Origin: Candidatus Bathyarchaeota archaeon | GTDB taxonomy: Archaea; Thermoproteota; Bathyarchaeia; Bathyarchaeales; Bathycorpusculaceae | Assembly (NCBI GenBank): GCA_963828195.1 | Contig: CAWHDT010000005.1 | Location: 736,001-800,000 of the forward strand | Direction of reading: 5' to 3' | Length of the DNA: 64,000 nt | Shown: positions 6,683 through 14,960 of the stretch, piece by piece | Position numbering within the stretch: position 1 is the first letter of the stretch | How the letters are laid out: each line of letters begins with the position of its first letter | Program-made: the position numbers and the translations under genes | Notes under the pieces: model-generated | Database searches by the model: none | What the model was told of the DNA's origin: nothing | The model's input: the letters and a program-made list of their open reading frames with translations, nothing else

Positions 6683-6783
6683 GCGCTTAATTATCAGACT
6701 GCGTCAAAACTCAGCGCTAAAGCCTAAAAGCATCTATCCCTCAAGCTATTGCTCGGAATCCTTTGTCACTTGTTTTCGCTTTT

Positions 6784-8256
6784 TTATGACTTCACCAAGC
6801 TTATTAGCATTCCAACTCCAAGAATGTTGATGACTCTTCTCATATTGTAAGCCAGCATCGTGAATCCGACCTCTCCGTTCACCTTCCTCAGGCCTTTGAG
6901 CAACAGGTATGCCTGATTGAACGCCCTTTTCATCGTGCCGAACGGGTGCTCGACAATCTCCTTTCTCCTCTTGAGCTTGCCAGATCCCTCATCGCTCTTG
7001 AGCCTCGCCCTGAGCCTGTCGATGACATCCTGATACTCCGACCTGAAAATTATCCTGCCCTGCTTGCTCCTCGTACATCTGCTCCTGAGAGGACATGCGG
7101 CGCACGCTGCTGTCCTGTATAGCCTGCCGCGGTTCTTCCATCTGCCCTTCCAGAAGCCCATCACCTGATTGGCGGGACAGACGTATACGTCTCTGAGAGG
7201 ATCATACGCAAATCTTTGCGAGTAGAATTCAGGCGCTGGTACTCCCAACTTCTTGTTGGGCATGGTCTCTTCCGGTATGGCGACGTATGCGGTTATCCCA
7301 TTCTCCTCACATTTCTTCAGCTCACTCCCTGTACAGAATCCCTTGTCTGCCGTAACATCCAGCTTCTCCACCTCCAGAATCATCTTCGCTTTCTGAGCCA
7401 TTCCTGCGAGTTGGTACCTGTCGTTGGCGTCATTTGTGATGTCGTAATCGACCACAAGGTGGTTCTTGGAGTCTACTGCAGACTCAACATTGTAACAGAC
7501 ATCCAACTTCTGACTGTCGGTCATCATCAGTCTGCTGTCAGGGTCGGTGAGGGAGACCTCCTTCTGCCCTGTCTCCATCATCAAATTCTGAGACCGGACA
7601 TACTCCTGCTTCTTCTCTTCAAGCTCGGCGAGCTTCTCCCTTAACCTGTCGATCTTCACAGCGGCGGTACTGCTATCATCGTCCTTAACCTCCTGTTCAG
7701 CCTCGTCGTTCTCCTCCAAGTTCTTCAGGTACTGAGCTATCTTATCTTCGACGCGCTTCAACCTCTCTGGTAACGTCTTCTCGTTGAGGTTCCTCTTTGT
7801 GGAGTTCACGGCCTTGAACTTGCTCCCGTCTATGGCGACGAGCTGGGCATCGTAGAGATCTAGTGAGCGGCAGAGGTAGACGAACTCCTTGAACACGGGT
7901 TTGATGCAGCCGACGTTGTCTTTGCGGAAGTCAGCGATGGTTTTATGGTCAGGGGTGAGTTTCTTCATTAGCCACATCACTTCAACGTTTCTGTGGCATT
8001 CTCTTTCGAGTTTTCGGCTTGACCTTATCTGATTCAGGTAGCCGTAGACATACAGCTTGAGCAAGTCTGATGGGTTGTAGGGCGGTCTTCCTTCCTCGTT
8101 TGGGATGGAGTGTTTGAAGCCGAGCTTTTCCAAATTGAGGCTGTCGATGAAAGCGTCTATGAACCTGACTGGATTTTCCCTGTCAACGTAGTCATCAAGT
8201 TTGTCTGGGAAGAGTACGGTTTGGTCTCGGTGTGTTCCGTTTATGTGCTCGCTCAT
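6784..8256 (-). CDS. IS1182-family DDE transposase
   Basis: GRPPYNP, SSRKLE, PDHKTIADFR, AIDGSKFKA, TDPDSRLM, ADKGF, YVCPA, RRKEIVEHPFGTMK, LAYNMRR. Confidence 0.95.
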   Translation of the reverse strand: MSEHINGTHRDQTVLFPDKLDDYVDRENPVRFIDAFIDSLNLEKLGFKHSIPNEEGRPPYNPSDLLKLYVYGYLNQIRSSRKLERECHRNVEVMWLMKKLTPDHKTIADFRKDNVGCIKPVFKEFVYLCRSLDLYDAQLVAIDGSKFKAVNSTKRNLNEKTLPERLKRVEDKIAQYLKNLEENDEAEQEVKDDDSSTAAVKIDRLREKLAELEEKKQEYVRSQNLMMETGQKEVSLTDPDSRLMMTDSQKLDVCYNVESAVDSKNHLVVDYDITNDANDRYQLAGMAQKAKMILEVEKLDVTADKGFCTGSELKKCEENGITAYVAIPEETMPNKKLGVPAPEFYSQRFAYDPLRDVYVCPANQVMGFWKGRWKNRGRLYRTAACAACPLRSRCTRSKQGRIIFRSEYQDVIDRLRARLKSDEGSGKLKRRKEIVEHPFGTMKRAFNQAYLLLKGLRKVNGEVGFTMLAYNMRRVINILGVGMLISLVKS

Positions 8257-9961: not shown

Positions 9962-11590
9962 CTAATTGTTAGAGGTGGCAGCAATGTAGTCAGCCACGAA
10001 AATTGTGAGGTCTGCGAAGTTGATTTTGCCATCATGATTCAAGTCGCAGGCTGGGTTATACGTGCCATTCAGGTTGTATTGAACGTAGGCGGCTACAAAG
10101 TAGGTGACGTCCATGAAATTGACTGTGCCCGTATGGTAGAAGTCTATTGGGCTCGCGTTTGGGGTTGATGTTGGAACCGGAGTTGGTGAAGGCGTTGAGG
10201 ATGACGTGACGGTGGGAACGGACGTTGATATTGGAGTCGCCGTTGGTGCAGGAGTTGGGGTGGCAGGTGGCGCTACGTATGCATTGATGTAGTCTTGTCC
10301 CATAGTGTTCGGCGTGTAGCCGCTTGACAACAGCTCTTCGCCGTCGTAAGTTCCGCCTAAGCCGCTGCTGCTAAGCCAATAATAAGCCCCATCGCCGATT
10401 CCACAAGCATATTGAGCTGCGAGTAAATTACTCCACCAAGTCGCGTCATTTGCAGTGTTGCTGGACGAAGATAGGCATGAGCCTTCCTCATTAATTACCA
10501 AGGGCGCGCTGACGTCCATGCCGCTTTGTAGGCTTTGCAGTTGGGTTTCAAGCTGAGCAGTAGTCATCGGAACTCCGCCTGAACTCGAATCCTTCCCGTT
10601 CTGGTTCCAGTACGAAGTAAGATCTGAAGGCGCGTAATAGTAGAGGTGCGTTGTAAAAGCCAAATTCGTCGGGCTTCCGATCGCTGAAGATATCGCAGAT
10701 GCCCACCCAAGCGTCTGACCGACGTTTGGTTCCCAACCGCAGTTCCACTGCATAAAAATCAAGTTCGTTGAGCCTGTGCTTCTGACCGCATTGTACATTG
10801 TGGTTAGGTATGTCATGTAGCCTGAGGTTACTGTGTTGGTTGATGAACCCATAGGCTCATTCCAAGCCTCAAAGATCACGTTCGGATAAGCTTTAAGCGC
10901 GTTAGCCATCGAAGCCCAGTACGCAGTCCAAAAAGCCTGCTCATTAGCGTAGCCATTTGTGCTCTCCTCATAGCTCAGAAACGCTTGTCCTGCACTGTCC
11001 CAGTTGCCGCACATTGGTAGTCCTTGCGATCCGGCTTGGTTAGGTGTCAGGTATGGGTCTGAGCTGAACGAGCCTGAGCAGGCTGTAAGTTGGTATGGTA
11101 CAATGTTGACGTAGATGCCTGCTGCTTCAGCTTCACTGGCCAAAGTCTCAACGTAGCTCTGCACGTTTTCACCGTTCGCAGTACCATCAGCGCCATTTAG
11201 CATCCACCACTCGGGGTAAATGAAGACGCGTATCATGTTAACAGCCCAGACGCTCGATAGCTCTGTAAGCGTTTGGGTTACCGCTGTTGACGAGGCTGAC
11301 CCCCACTGGTCGCCCCAACTGTCGCCGCCTCCTGACCCCCACAGAATCAGATCCGGCGACATTCCGGCTACGCCCATGCCGCGCAGATAAACTGGGTTGT
11401 TGTTTGAGTCAAGTATCTGACCGCCTGAAGTATGCAACGGCAATGTTGCTGTTGCAGCGTAAACGTCGGATGAGCTAAAAACTGCGAACATGCTTATGGC
11501 AAAGATTGCAATGCAGCATAGTCCCACTGGCTTTGCAAGCTTCCTCAAACTAAGAGCGTGAGCTATACTCACTAAATTTTGTCCTTTCAT
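9962..11590 (-). CDS. Secreted GH5 (cellulase-family) glycoside hydrolase with P/T linker and C-terminal dockerin-like domain
   Basis: LHTSGGQILDSNNNPVYLRG, NMIRV, FEAWNEP (acid/base), THLYY, LVINEEG (nucleophile); twin repeats DFYHTGTVNFMD and DLNHDGKINFAD. Confidence 0.85.
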   Translation of the reverse strand: MKGQNLVSIAHALSLRKLAKPVGLCCIAIFAISMFAVFSSSDVYAATATLPLHTSGGQILDSNNNPVYLRGMGVAGMSPDLILWGSGGGDSWGDQWGSASSTAVTQTLTELSSVWAVNMIRVFIYPEWWMLNGADGTANGENVQSYVETLASEAEAAGIYVNIVPYQLTACSGSFSSDPYLTPNQAGSQGLPMCGNWDSAGQAFLSYEESTNGYANEQAFWTAYWASMANALKAYPNVIFEAWNEPMGSSTNTVTSGYMTYLTTMYNAVRSTGSTNLIFMQWNCGWEPNVGQTLGWASAISSAIGSPTNLAFTTHLYYYAPSDLTSYWNQNGKDSSSGGVPMTTAQLETQLQSLQSGMDVSAPLVINEEGSCLSSSSNTANDATWWSNLLAAQYACGIGDGAYYWLSSSGLGGTYDGEELLSSGYTPNTMGQDYINAYVAPPATPTPAPTATPISTSVPTVTSSSTPSPTPVPTSTPNASPIDFYHTGTVNFMDVTYFVAAYVQYNLNGTYNPACDLNHDGKINFADLTIFVADYIAATSNN

Positions 11591-11770: not shown

Positions 11771-12793
11771 TTAGTCCCCTAAGTTGCCGACTCTTAGTTT
11801 GTCCACTTCAGCCTGCTCTGGAACTGCCACGACTAAGAATTTGTTTAAGGTTTCTCTGCCATAGTTCACTTTAACTTCGCCTGTTTTAGCATCGGAATAA
11901 CGGGCGGTTAATTTGGCAGCTGCTTCAATAGCTTTTTTGGTTTTTGGTCCCTGAAGAATCGTTATTGGACCGACAATTTCGGGCAACTCAAAGTATAGTT
12001 CATTTTTCGTTTTTCTGGCTACTAAAAGCTTGTTTTCAGCTTCGTTTCTTCCCACAACGATTTTGTTTTTACCCAACCGGAAGTGCCTCCCAACTCTGAG
12101 CAAAGCGATATCCGCCATGGAAATGCGTTTCTTGTGGGCGAAGAGGTCGCGGATTTTCTTTGCGTATTCCTCGTATGTTAGGAGACAGCCGCCTGCGGGA
12201 CAAGGATAATCCTTAATGTTGAATTCCTCTGCAAGCTTGAACTGCGGCTTTCGTGACCGTCCCTGAATATCCAGCAGTTTAGATCTGTCAACTAAACCCT
12301 TCTTTTCAGCTTCCGTTTCCGGCAGTAGTCTGGCAGAAAGCGGCCTTAGAACCTTGCCTTTCAAACCGCCTTCTTTTTCAATCAGCATCATGGCAGGATA
12401 ATGCTGAGACATAGGGCGCTCATCTAAAACTTCGCCAGTAAAAATGAAGGCTGCACCCATCTCTTTCGCGTATTTCTTGGCTTTTTTCATGAGGAAAATT
12501 CTGCAGTCGATGCAGGGGTTCATGTTTCTTCCGTAGCCGTGCTTGGGGTTGCGGAGCATCCGCAGGTAATCGTTTCCAGCGGCAACCATTTTCAGCGGCA
12601 CATTCAACTGTTTAGCTGCATCCACAGCTGCGCAACCGTCTTTTTTGCAGAGGCAAAAGGGGCTTCTGACATTGAAGGCGGTTACTTCGATGCCTTGCTT
12701 TACAATCATTTCTGTAGCAAGAATGCTGTCTAATCCGCCTGAAAGCAAACCTAAAGCTTTAACACGAGTCATGTAGCCAATAGCATTCTTCAA
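11771..12793 (-). CDS. ThiI/MnmA-like PP-loop tRNA thiolation protein with C-terminal NFACT-R/DUF814-like domain
   Basis: LLSGGLDS, NPCIDCR, TGEVL...RPMSQ, PAGGCLLT, VGRHFR, VVGRNEAEN. Confidence 0.8.
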   Translation of the reverse strand: MKNAIGYMTRVKALGLLSGGLDSILATEMIVKQGIEVTAFNVRSPFCLCKKDGCAAVDAAKQLNVPLKMVAAGNDYLRMLRNPKHGYGRNMNPCIDCRIFLMKKAKKYAKEMGAAFIFTGEVLDERPMSQHYPAMMLIEKEGGLKGKVLRPLSARLLPETEAEKKGLVDRSKLLDIQGRSRKPQFKLAEEFNIKDYPCPAGGCLLTYEEYAKKIRDLFAHKKRISMADIALLRVGRHFRLGKNKIVVGRNEAENKLLVARKTKNELYFELPEIVGPITILQGPKTKKAIEAAAKLTARYSDAKTGEVKVNYGRETLNKFLVVAVPEQAEVDKLRVGNLGD

Positions 12794-12996
12794 CCTGAAT
12801 AATAATCTAACGATAAAGGCAAGAAGAAAAAACCCGCCGAAACAAGAATTATCTTACTAACCTCATTTGGGGATGTATACAAGTTGTTAAGTGAACTTGA
12901 CTTGTTTGCGAAGCCCAGCATGTACGTTAAACCCAATCAAAGTTGACTTTTAAGCGAATCCCAATTGTCAAGAAGCTATAAAATCTCAGGGCTTTA

Positions 12997-14376
12997 ATGA
13001 AGATGGCAAGGAAGCGCTTGGAGGAGAAACAATTGGTTGTTGAAAAAACCCGAAACATAATCAGCTTCCAAGAATACGGCAAACAACAGGAAGCTAATGT
13101 AACAGTTCGGGAGTGGAAAAATTATAAATGGCAACTAAAAAACTCGGTAAAAACTGTTGCCGCTTTCGAAAAGGCTACAGGCATCGCATTTACAGAAAAA
13201 GAACATGAAGAACTCGAAAAAACAATCCTCAAATTCCCCCTAAGCATAACACCCTATTATGCGTCGTTAATTAAGAAAGAAAATTACGTCAATGACCCCA
13301 TATTTAAGCAGTCGTTTCCTAACCCAGCTGAACTAAAAATTTCAAAATACGACATGAAAGACCCACTACATGAAGACAAGGACAGCCCCACTAAAGGAAT
13401 TACTCACCGATACCCCGACAGAGTCCTTTTTCTAGTCAGCAACCAATGCGCAATGTACTGTAGACACTGCACAAGAAAAAGAAAAGTCGGCGATCCAGAA
13501 CATATTCCGTCAAAGCAACAGATAATCCGGGGAATCCGCTACATAGAAAACCACCGCGAAATACGTGATGTGCTGCTTTCGGGAGGAGACCCCTTTATGC
13601 TGCCTGACGATTTTCTGGATTGGATTCTAACGGAGCTAAACAGCATTCCACATATTGAGGTGGTACGAATTGGCTCAAGAATTCCAGTTGTTCTCCCCTA
13701 CAGAATAACGGATGAGCTGGTGCAGATGTTAAAGAAACATCATCCATTGTGGTTAAATACCCAGTTTAACCACCCAAGAGAATTCACATTATCTTCCAGA
13801 GAAGCCCTCAGAAAACTAGCAGATGCAGGAATCCCCCTGGGGAATCAAACTGTACTGTTAGCAGGCGTCAACGACTGCCCAAAAATAATGAAAAAACTCA
13901 ATCAAGAACTTGTACAAAACAGAGTAAGGCCATATTATCTGTTTCAATGTGACCTCTCAGAAGGGCTCACGCATTTTCGAACACCTATCGGAAAAGGCAT
14001 CGAAATCATGGAAAGCCTCGTAGGCCACACAAGCGGGTTTGCCGTCCCCAAATACGTTATAGATGCGCCTGGGGGAGGAGGAAAAATTCCTGTTATGCCA
14101 AACTACATTGTCTCATGGTCCACAAATAAAGTGGTCTTAAGAAACTACGAAGGCGTCATAACCACCTACAAAGAACCCGACGACTACAAATCCATTCAGT
14201 GCCAAAGAAACTGCGGCAAATGCGGTTTACCTCCAAAACTAACTGAAGACGAGCAGAACGCCGTGGGCGTGGAAAAACTGTTAGCGGACACCGATGAAAT
14301 ATCGCTTGTGCCAAACGGAAACCTGCGGATGAAACGAAGAGAAAAAGCAAGCGTAGGAGGTGTTTTGAATACTTAA
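12997..14376 (+). CDS. kamA: Lysine 2,3-aminomutase (radical SAM/PLP)
   Basis: [73 protein letters not shown]-terminal CQRNCGKC. Confidence 0.95.
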
Positions 14377-14389
14377 AATTAAAAATTAC

Positions 14390-14899
14390 TTGAAATTCAA
14401 AATCAGAAGCGTACTGCTCAAAGACGTAAAAGAAGTGTATAAACTGCTTTTGGCAAACAGACCATACGTCGGGTTAAATTCCAGGTACACCTACTTTCTT
14501 TTAGCAAAAGATTTTTCCGATACCTGTGTCGTTGCAGAACAAAATAACAAAATAATCGCGTTTTCCTCAGGGTACCTTCCTCCCGACAGACCAGAAACTT
14601 TCTTCAACTGGGAAATCGCCGTTGACAAAGAATATCGGGGATACAGCTTACAGAAACAAATGCTTCTTCATCAAATCCGAATAACAGACGCAAAATATTT
14701 TGAGTGCACAGTGAACCCGTCAAATGAAGCGTCAAGAAGAAACTGCTGTCAACTAGCTCAAATGCTAAACACCAAATGCGAAGAATACCTGCTTTTCAGC
14801 GAAGCAGATTTCGAAAATGATGGCCACGAACCAGAAATTCTCTACCGAATCGGACCAATTGCCAAAAGTGAAGTAAAAAATTTAGCTACCATACAATAG
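14390..14899 (+). CDS. GNAT acetyltransferase, EctA (diaminobutyrate acetyltransferase)-like
   Basis: LNSRYTYFLLAKDFSDTCVVAE, SGYLPPDRPETFFNWEIAVD, ECTVNPSNEAS, GHEPEILYRIGP follow the EctA pattern along the whole length. Confidence 0.8.
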   Translation: MKFKIRSVLLKDVKEVYKLLLANRPYVGLNSRYTYFLLAKDFSDTCVVAEQNNKIIAFSSGYLPPDRPETFFNWEIAVDKEYRGYSLQKQMLLHQIRITDAKYFECTVNPSNEASRRNCCQLAQMLNTKCEEYLLFSEADFENDGHEPEILYRIGPIAKSEVKNLATIQ

Positions 14900-14911
14900 A
14901 CAACAATGTTG

Positions 14912-14960
14912 AAGCAACCTCACCTTTTTTTAATCAAAAAAAGAAAAGTGAAGGTTGCTT
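14912..14960. terminator. Inverted repeat with T tract after the kamA-ectA-like pair
   Basis: aagcaacct-cac ... gtg-a-aggttgctt enclosing T/A runs. Confidence 0.45.

Follow-up and report, generated by a model that had tools for sequence, protein, structure and literature searches.

What does a lysine 2,3-aminomutase gene do when the gene behind it encodes a short acetyltransferase resembling EctA of the ectoine pathway? We interrogated such a pair in a window of 64,000 nucleotides (nt), the whole stretch of DNA that was analysed (positions 736,001 to 800,000 of contig CAWHDT010000005.1, assembly GCA_963828195.1, Candidatus Bathyarchaeota archaeon). The aminomutase gene, kamA or ablA, is followed on the same strand by a gene for a single-domain acetyltransferase of the GNAT superfamily. 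In methanogens, Candidatus Methanoperedens and Bacillus, AblA makes N-epsilon-acetyl-beta-lysine together with a different acetyltransferase, AblB (YodP). The original prediction, made from the sequence alone, was that an EctA homologue had been recruited here to acetylate beta-lysine. Our analysis leads us to a related view: with a probability of roughly 0.6, the pair is a two-gene beta-lysine acetylation route with a non-orthologous acetyltransferase of the EctA family. The two genes are as follows.

12997..14376, + strand: kamA/ablA, predicted lysine 2,3-aminomutase (radical S-adenosylmethionine (SAM) enzyme with pyridoxal 5'-phosphate (PLP)), 459 amino acids (aa), ATG start; assigned with TIGR03820.
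14390..14899, + strand: EctA-family GNAT acetyltransferase, 169 aa from TTG (176 aa if from ATA); assigned with TIGR02406 and by fold.

The KamA protein scores 742.2 bits on TIGR03820, the AblA equivalog model (cutoff 525.4), and lies under the cutoffs of the models for glutamate 2,3-aminomutase (465.8 against 650), arginine 2,3-aminomutase (378.4 against 600) and EpmB (248.6 against 369.3). It contains LAM_C and Radical_SAM domains and aligns without gaps to PDB 2A5H (E = 4e-143). In this alignment, D319, D356 and K363 are the equivalents of D293, D330 and K337, and the cluster cysteines C151, C155 and C158 form a CxxxCxxC motif in register with that of 2A5H. We take D293 and D330 to be the two aspartates that bind the epsilon-amine of the lysine side chain in 2A5H; K363, the equivalent of the PLP-binding lysine, is kept as well. 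The motifs quoted earlier for KamA, YLFQCD and IDAPGGGGK, are both found in the translation. With the AblA cutoff passed, the glutamate model failed and both Asp equivalents kept, the earlier view of KamA as a lysine rather than a glutamate aminomutase holds up, and by these sequence criteria we classify the protein as a predicted AblA-type lysine 2,3-aminomutase. The best 120 matches in a homologue search all come from the Bathyarchaeial clade, with no AblB-partnered AblA among them.

The GNAT has a single NCBIfam match, a marginal pass of the EctA model TIGR02406, EC 2.3.1.178 (130.4 bits against a cutoff of 120.6, model positions 6-156 of 157), and gives no match to the AblB model TIGR03827. 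Its AlphaFold (AF2) model has a predicted local distance difference test score of 94.3 and a predicted template-modelling (TM) score of 0.88. In a Foldseek comparison with the PDB, the best 10 matches are all EctA (TM 0.78-0.86, root-mean-square deviation 1.6-2.5 A, 31-35% identity), followed by a generic GNAT at TM 0.70. The window GNAT thus shares both the fold and the family-model pass of EctA, the L-2,4-diaminobutyrate N-gamma-acetyltransferase encoded in ectABC(D) clusters (PDB 3D3S, 6SK1, 6SLL and 6SJY). The motifs that had pointed to EctA, GLNSRYTYFLLAKDFSDTCVVAE, SSGYLPPDRPETFFNWEIAV, TVNPSNEAS and HEPEILYRIGP, are present in the translation. The single NCBIfam match, the ten top structures and the long outgroup branches of the trees described below all place the protein with EctA, as had been proposed, and not with AblB or generic GNATs. 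The ratio of nonsynonymous to synonymous substitution rates (dN/dS) is 0.06-0.18 for the GNAT against nine relatives (pairs with unsaturated dS) and 0.07-0.11 for kamA against its relatives. Both genes are under purifying selection, and the family is clearly constrained.

We then asked how widely the two genes occur together. A locus scan of species-representative genomes gave 16 close loci, nearly all labelled as Bathyarchaeia or Bathyarchaeota metagenome-assembled genomes, and kamA lies directly 5' of the GNAT in 13 of them. A 17th locus (L020), a generic GNAT matched via one peptide pattern, was excluded from the counts and reused as a tree outgroup. Among 301 genomes drawn evenly from the class, 10 carry the GNAT, restricted to two families, and in every one of these carriers it adjoins an AblA-type KamA (9 over the cutoff, 1 cut by contig ends). 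No KamA over the AblA cutoff occurs in the remaining 291 genomes, and no AblB over the cutoff in any of the 301 (best 45.5 bits). In one locus (L018), kamA and the GNAT are frameshifted together. The adjacency therefore extends well beyond the source genome; the pairing is not due to chance, and the two genes behave as a unit.

At least six flanking contexts are seen for the pair, and no third gene is conserved among them. Its neighbours are thiI-like and GT2 genes, as in the window; glycosyltransferases; QueT with an IS605-type TnpB; a fasciclin protein with an MFS protein; RpiA; or a Rio kinase or xanthine-dehydrogenase-type protein, together with an HD protein and SdhA. Because the distribution is patchy and the insertion sites vary, these data suggest an accessory, laterally moving module. 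In L009, an IS605-type TnpB (6741-8012; OrfB_IS605 with a Cas12f1-like TNB domain) lies directly 3' of the pair, in keeping with mobility of the module. The thiI-like neighbour in the window (11771..12793, - strand) encodes a 340-aa protein in which a ThiI/MnmA-like PP-loop ATPase domain is joined to an NFACT-R_2 RNA-binding domain at the C-terminus; among the closest relatives this gene keeps its synteny with the pair, but it stands outside the module.

Canonical ectA genes keep different company. A scan of metagenome contigs with an 11-sequence alignment returned 80 EctA-family loci, none of which contains kamA; ectB and/or ectC lie directly 3' on the same strand in 75, and the other 5 end within 351 bp. 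NCBIfam identifies two of the metagenomic loci as full ectABC clusters, with EctA scores of 195 and 207 bits. In a sample of the phylum, 11 of 401 genomes carry an EctA-family gene. Five of these belong to another family with genomes of 1.6-1.7 Mb, score 159-182 bits and all have ectA-ectB-ectC, whereas the other six are Bathyarchaeia, score 127-137 bits and all have kamA-GNAT. Overall, the clade members that we scored reach 125-137 bits on TIGR02406, against 159-207 for EctAs with an ectB/ectC context. There is no EctB or EctC match at the Bathyarchaeial GNAT loci. EctA thus sits beside ectB or ectC, where the window-type GNAT is never found; the latter adjoins kamA in all but 3 of the 16 close loci.

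Identity levels and phylogeny also set the Bathyarchaeial proteins apart. In a search of 1.8 billion representatives, a gap separates the clade members, with 62% identity or more to the window GNAT, from all other proteins, with 47% or less; identity between the clade and context-verified EctAs is 31-45%. Trees were rooted on three generic GNATs, whose branches are 2-7 changes per site long. The Bathyarchaeial GNATs form one clade in FastTree (support 83) and under an IQ-TREE mixture model (96, including the fragment P0127), and a divergent protein, P0125, attaches next to it with support of 86-90. In an approximately unbiased (AU) test, a canonical-EctA clade that excludes the Bathyarchaeial GNATs was unrejected (p-AU 0.78), with a log-likelihood 16 units above that of the free-search tree. 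On sequence grounds the Bathyarchaeial GNATs are probably a sister subfamily of canonical EctA, a separate clade with a lower class of model scores. The idea of a recruited EctA homologue therefore stands as regards family membership and loses its direction, since sister-group placement is at least as likely by the AU test. An EctA-type label likewise suits the family hidden Markov model (HMM) and the fold, but has to allow for a separate clade in which two family-invariant positions are changed. When longer or fused relatives of the GNAT were sought, 8 proteins came up (6 EctA-EctB fusions, 1 EctA-EctC fusion and 1 odd fusion), with no fusion to KamA or to an ATP-grasp protein among these 8, which is weak evidence. 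The canonical EctA fusions that we recorded (P0163, P0185, P0182, P0399-P0405) involve MarR-type regulators (two representatives), EctB (one representative and six longer proteins) and EctC (one).

We compared residues between 134 clade members and 75 context-verified EctAs. Both groups share N30, S31, Y33, Y35, F72, W74, R83, G84, T107, N112, S115, H146, E149, G155 and P156 as invariants. They differ most clearly at four positions.

Position 27: V in 134 of 134 clade members; L in 75 of 75 EctAs.
Position 28: G in 134 of 134 clade members; D in 72 and E in 3 of 75 EctAs.
Position 75: E in 134 of 134 clade members; Q in 75 of 75 EctAs.
Position 41: D in 133 of 134 clade members; H in 58 of 75 EctAs.

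Further differences lie at positions 36, 39, 59, 95, 106 and 118. The clade thus has Gly28 where the EctA motif LDLNS has its invariant Asp or Glu, and Glu75 where EctA has an invariant Gln behind the conserved Trp; in an alignment with P. lautus EctA, D33 corresponds to G28 and Q80 to E75. P0125 (38% identical), which is not part of the phylum sample, bears the same YVG and WE signature. The structural model puts G28 into the alpha1-alpha2 loop and D41 at the end of alpha2, with E75 on beta4 beside the invariant Trp, G106 on beta5 and N118 on alpha4. The acceptor-substrate site of GNAT enzymes lies on these elements. In the model, then, one wall of the presumed acceptor site appears to have lost an invariant acidic residue, and a different wall to have acquired one. 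This shift would fit a longer substrate whose distal ammonium/carboxylate head is anchored elsewhere. In beta-lysine, one to two more bonds separate the reacting amine from the head group than in diaminobutyrate.

The remaining genes of the known pathways were sought in the genome that holds the window, which is 96% complete in 9 contigs. It has one KamA-family gene and one EctA-family gene. The AblB model (TIGR03827, 266 positions) has no match in it. EctC was found neither with Pfam PF06339, a model that was also silent in control genomes and is weak alone, nor by tblastn with two EctC probes from verified clusters. No EctB exceeds the cutoff (best 227 bits against 552); the EctB-like matches are generic class-III aminotransferases at 28-30% identity, and three class-III aminotransferases are present. 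The noted absence of ectB and ectC from the window was confirmed and extends to the whole genome at its 96% completeness, and the genome-wide search proposed with the original prediction gave no EctC or AblB match and no EctB over its cutoff. Of the hybrid osmolyte pathway proposed there, the pairing of kamA with an EctA-family GNAT stands, while the ectoine pathway contributes the acetyltransferase fold only. The genome encodes LysA (470 bits, over its cutoff of 298), so lysine can be made. Two enzymes of beta-lysine breakdown gave no match in this genome: beta-lysine 5,6-aminomutase (KamD, PF09043), for which the control was silent and the negative is weak, and the 3-keto-5-aminohexanoate cleavage enzyme.

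The arrangement of the two genes suggests how they may be expressed together. Beside the reading frames, we noted four features.

12977..12984, + strand: TATA-like box TATAAAAT, 13-20 nt 5' of the kamA ATG, read from the sequence.
14356..14362, + strand: Shine-Dalgarno-like GGAGGTG within the 3' end of kamA, 6 nt 5' of the ancestral GNAT start, from the sequence and a junction alignment.
14369..14371, + strand: ATA in place of the ancestral GNAT start codon, from the junction alignment.
14912..14960, + strand: hairpin with an internal U7 run, 13 nt 3' of the GNAT stop, from RNA folding.

The pair of reading frames, the 13 nt between the kamA stop and the GNAT TTG, and the 169-aa GNAT followed by a hairpin are all as first described. 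In the relatives, the GNAT starts at an ATG 7 codons 5' of the window TTG (10 of 10 in the junction alignment), and in all 10 this ATG overlaps the kamA stop by 8 nt, which we read from the alignment as the classic arrangement for translational coupling. Because the relatives' ancestral ATG overlaps the kamA stop and reads ATA here, the 13-nt gap, though present in the window, is a secondary feature of this strain. The TTG at 14390 is the sole canonical GNAT start left in the window; the protein is made either from this TTG, without seven poorly conserved residues, or by inefficient initiation at ATA. GGAGGTG stands at the usual distance before the ATA and is predicted to serve in ribosome binding. 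The TATA-like box is a possible archaeal promoter, which would yield a leaderless or near-leaderless kamA transcript. A second in-frame kamA ATG lies at 13003, and the true start may be this second Met; the N-terminal residues of KamA (about 10) are not conserved among relatives. The hairpin (-21.4 kcal/mol, z = -3.78) was matched in stability by none of 200 shuffles and is the likely transcript end of the two-gene unit, where it would act as a terminator. A 330-nt contig of a public run, X1, which may be the source sample, spans 14090-14419 with zero differences; the public-run DNA contigs that match the locus are short fragments, none of which covers both genes.

Taken together, we propose that kamA and the GNAT gene form a self-contained, translationally coupled two-gene unit. 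KamA would convert L-lysine, which can be made via LysA, into beta-lysine, and the GNAT would acetylate beta-lysine with acetyl-CoA. EctA acetylates the distal amine of its substrate and leaves the amino-acid head intact. By analogy, the target here would most likely be the distal epsilon-amino group, and the product, N-epsilon-acetyl-beta-lysine, would be a neutral zwitterionic compatible solute. The GNAT would thereby fill the role of the unrelated, longer AblB/YodP acetyltransferase, and the module, accessory and laterally mobile, would have a stress-protectant role in soil and peat Bathyarchaeia. The non-orthologous route to N-acetyl-beta-lysine in the original prediction gains support from the grouping with EctA, the recurrent adjacency to kamA, and the failure to detect ectB, ectC or ablB in the source genome. 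That the GNAT is a non-orthologous replacement of AblB making N-acetyl-beta-lysine is, in our judgement, somewhat better than an even bet; the substrate, the acetylated nitrogen, the product and the stress role are all put forward as predictions.

Several observations weigh against this proposal. Two genomes, those of L014 and L015, have an intact GNAT that bears the clade signature, yet no KamA anywhere. These GNATs (L014 5980-6660 and L015 3622-4302) are 226 aa long with a C-terminal extension of about 55 aa, and they occupy the site (aIF-1A, Rio kinase / GNAT / HD protein) that holds the pair in L012 and L019; they may act on a KamA-independent substrate or reflect recent losses of kamA. 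L015 bears the label Acidoferrum, but its aIF-1A, Rio kinase and KH-domain genes are archaeal, and misbinning is probable. Resolution along the backbone of the tree is poor. The 96% completeness of the source genome and the silent EctC controls weaken the EctC negative, though tblastn was also blank. With ATA at the ancestral start of the GNAT, its expression in the window may be reduced or initiated at TTG. A role of G28 and E75 in substrate choice would follow by analogy from general GNAT architecture. Finally, the source habitats are soil, peat and bog and are not saline. This need not be an obstacle, because a freshwater archaeon uses N-acetyl-beta-lysine and induces kamA-ablB under salt, according to PMC11337218. 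The third locus that lacks the pair is L016 (6001-6354), which shares its contig with L006. Here kamA is deleted and the GNAT, cut short at its N-terminus to residues 51-169, is flanked by the thiI-like and GT2 genes; an intact pair sits about 40 kb away on that contig, and the remnant records a relocation or duplication of the module.

Other explanations of the locus differ in what they make of the same facts. It is doubtful, though conceivable, that an EctA-sister GNAT that has lost Asp28 and gained Glu75 acetylates another nitrogen or another diamino acid and so makes an undescribed solute in peat and soil Bathyarchaeia; if true, the EctA fold would hold, in G28/E75, a natural specificity switch of two residues. 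Put more broadly, the unit could be KamA-coupled and its product still be something other than N-epsilon-acetyl-beta-lysine, namely an undescribed solute acetylated on the beta-amino group or derived from a further-processed or other diamino acid. With 31-45% identity to EctAs and fixed residues of its own, the regiochemistry of the GNAT cannot be read from homology; the orphan GNATs of L014 and L015 hint at a KamA-free substrate, and the class holds further KamA cassettes with unassigned products. We nevertheless consider this unlikely, in view of the fact that no third enzyme is conserved beside the pair over at least six contexts and that EctA-family chemistry is distal-amine acetylation (established knowledge, and the titles of 6SJY and 6SLL). 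Acetylation might also be the first step in disposal of beta-lysine rather than in solute synthesis. The chemistry would be identical, and the aerobic Pseudomonas pathway for beta-lysine runs via 6-acetamido-3-aminohexanoate; Bathyarchaeia are moreover regarded as peptide and amino-acid fermenters in PMC9534799. A pathway that made beta-lysine only for breakdown would need further genes downstream, however, and none was seen: the genome yielded neither of the two breakdown enzymes searched for above (the KamD control being silent), and the pair has no conserved aminotransferase, deacetylase or thiolase as a neighbour. We therefore hold a role in catabolism or detoxification to be quite improbable.

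The GNAT might instead be a true diaminobutyrate acetyltransferase that forms N-gamma-acetyl-diaminobutyrate from diaminobutyrate supplied by a generic aminotransferase, with kamA an unrelated neighbour. It does pass the EctA equivalog cutoff and has the EctA fold, and the genome offers three class-III aminotransferases. We regard this as very unlikely: the score is marginal beside those of context-supported EctAs, two positions invariant in all 75 EctAs are changed in all 134 clade members, the genome has no EctB over the cutoff and no detected EctC, and co-occurrence with AblA-type KamA in the class sample is perfect. Plain co-inheritance of two functionally unlinked genes is the least credible account. 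Close relatives do share the flanking thiI-like and GT2 genes, and conservation is partly plain synteny, but the pair persists through at least six flanking contexts, its start and stop overlap by 8 nt, and the two genes are jointly present or absent across the 301 genomes.

The proposed acetylation of beta-lysine by the kamA-GNAT unit has its closest parallel in kamA-ablB of methanogens, Methanoperedens and some bacteria, which likewise pairs an AblA-type kamA with an acetyl-CoA-dependent GNAT in two genes and for which the predicted chemistry and product are the same. AblB is a protein of about 270 aa, whereas the clade has a single-domain EctA-family protein of 169-176 aa. The kamA-ablB module is also mobile and patchy in its distribution, as described in PMC11337218. 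A second cassette, found in other Bathyarchaeia and many bacteria, likewise combines a KamA-family aminomutase with a GNAT. Its KamA paralogue is short (367-378 aa) and lies under the AblA cutoff (487-517 bits), and it includes two Ddl-like ATP-grasp ligases as well as a GNAT of generic type (Acetyltransf_3/1) from outside the EctA family, while the window unit has no ligase. We saw such cassettes in two class genomes, L125 (G014:C8, 1175-5005) and L126 (G028:C8, 2794-6596); in L126, the GNAT is fused to one of the ATP-grasp ligases. The short-KamA cassette is a different module from the pair in the window. The literature searched, which left out most subscription journals, holds no report of an EctA-type beta-lysine acetyltransferase or of a kamA-GNAT pair in Bathyarchaeia. 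Trehalose is the only compatible solute of Bathyarchaeia discussed in the accessible part of PMC9534799.

Elsewhere in the window, 9962..11590 (- strand) encodes a 542-aa, secreted-looking protein of the GH5 cellulase family, whose linker is rich in Thr and Pro and whose C-terminus bears a dockerin-like repeat, DLNHDGKINFADL; it looks atypical for an archaeon.

These results bear on how such genes are read in Bathyarchaeia. Databases name clade members diaminobutyrate acetyltransferase, and every member that we scored passes the NCBI EctA equivalog cutoff; this naming wrongly implies a capacity for ectoine in the class. Conversely, surveys of N-acetyl-beta-lysine keyed on AblB (K21935, as in PMC11337218) miss these genomes. 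The subfamily appears to be a natural case of an EctA fold re-tuned to another substrate, with changed positions that are sharply defined and can be swapped, and biotechnology may gain from it a compact way to make a beta-amino-acid solute with two genes. For a lineage of soil and peat archaea that is abundant and uncultured, the pair would provide a testable stress-protectant pathway, carried as a small accessory module by some strains only.

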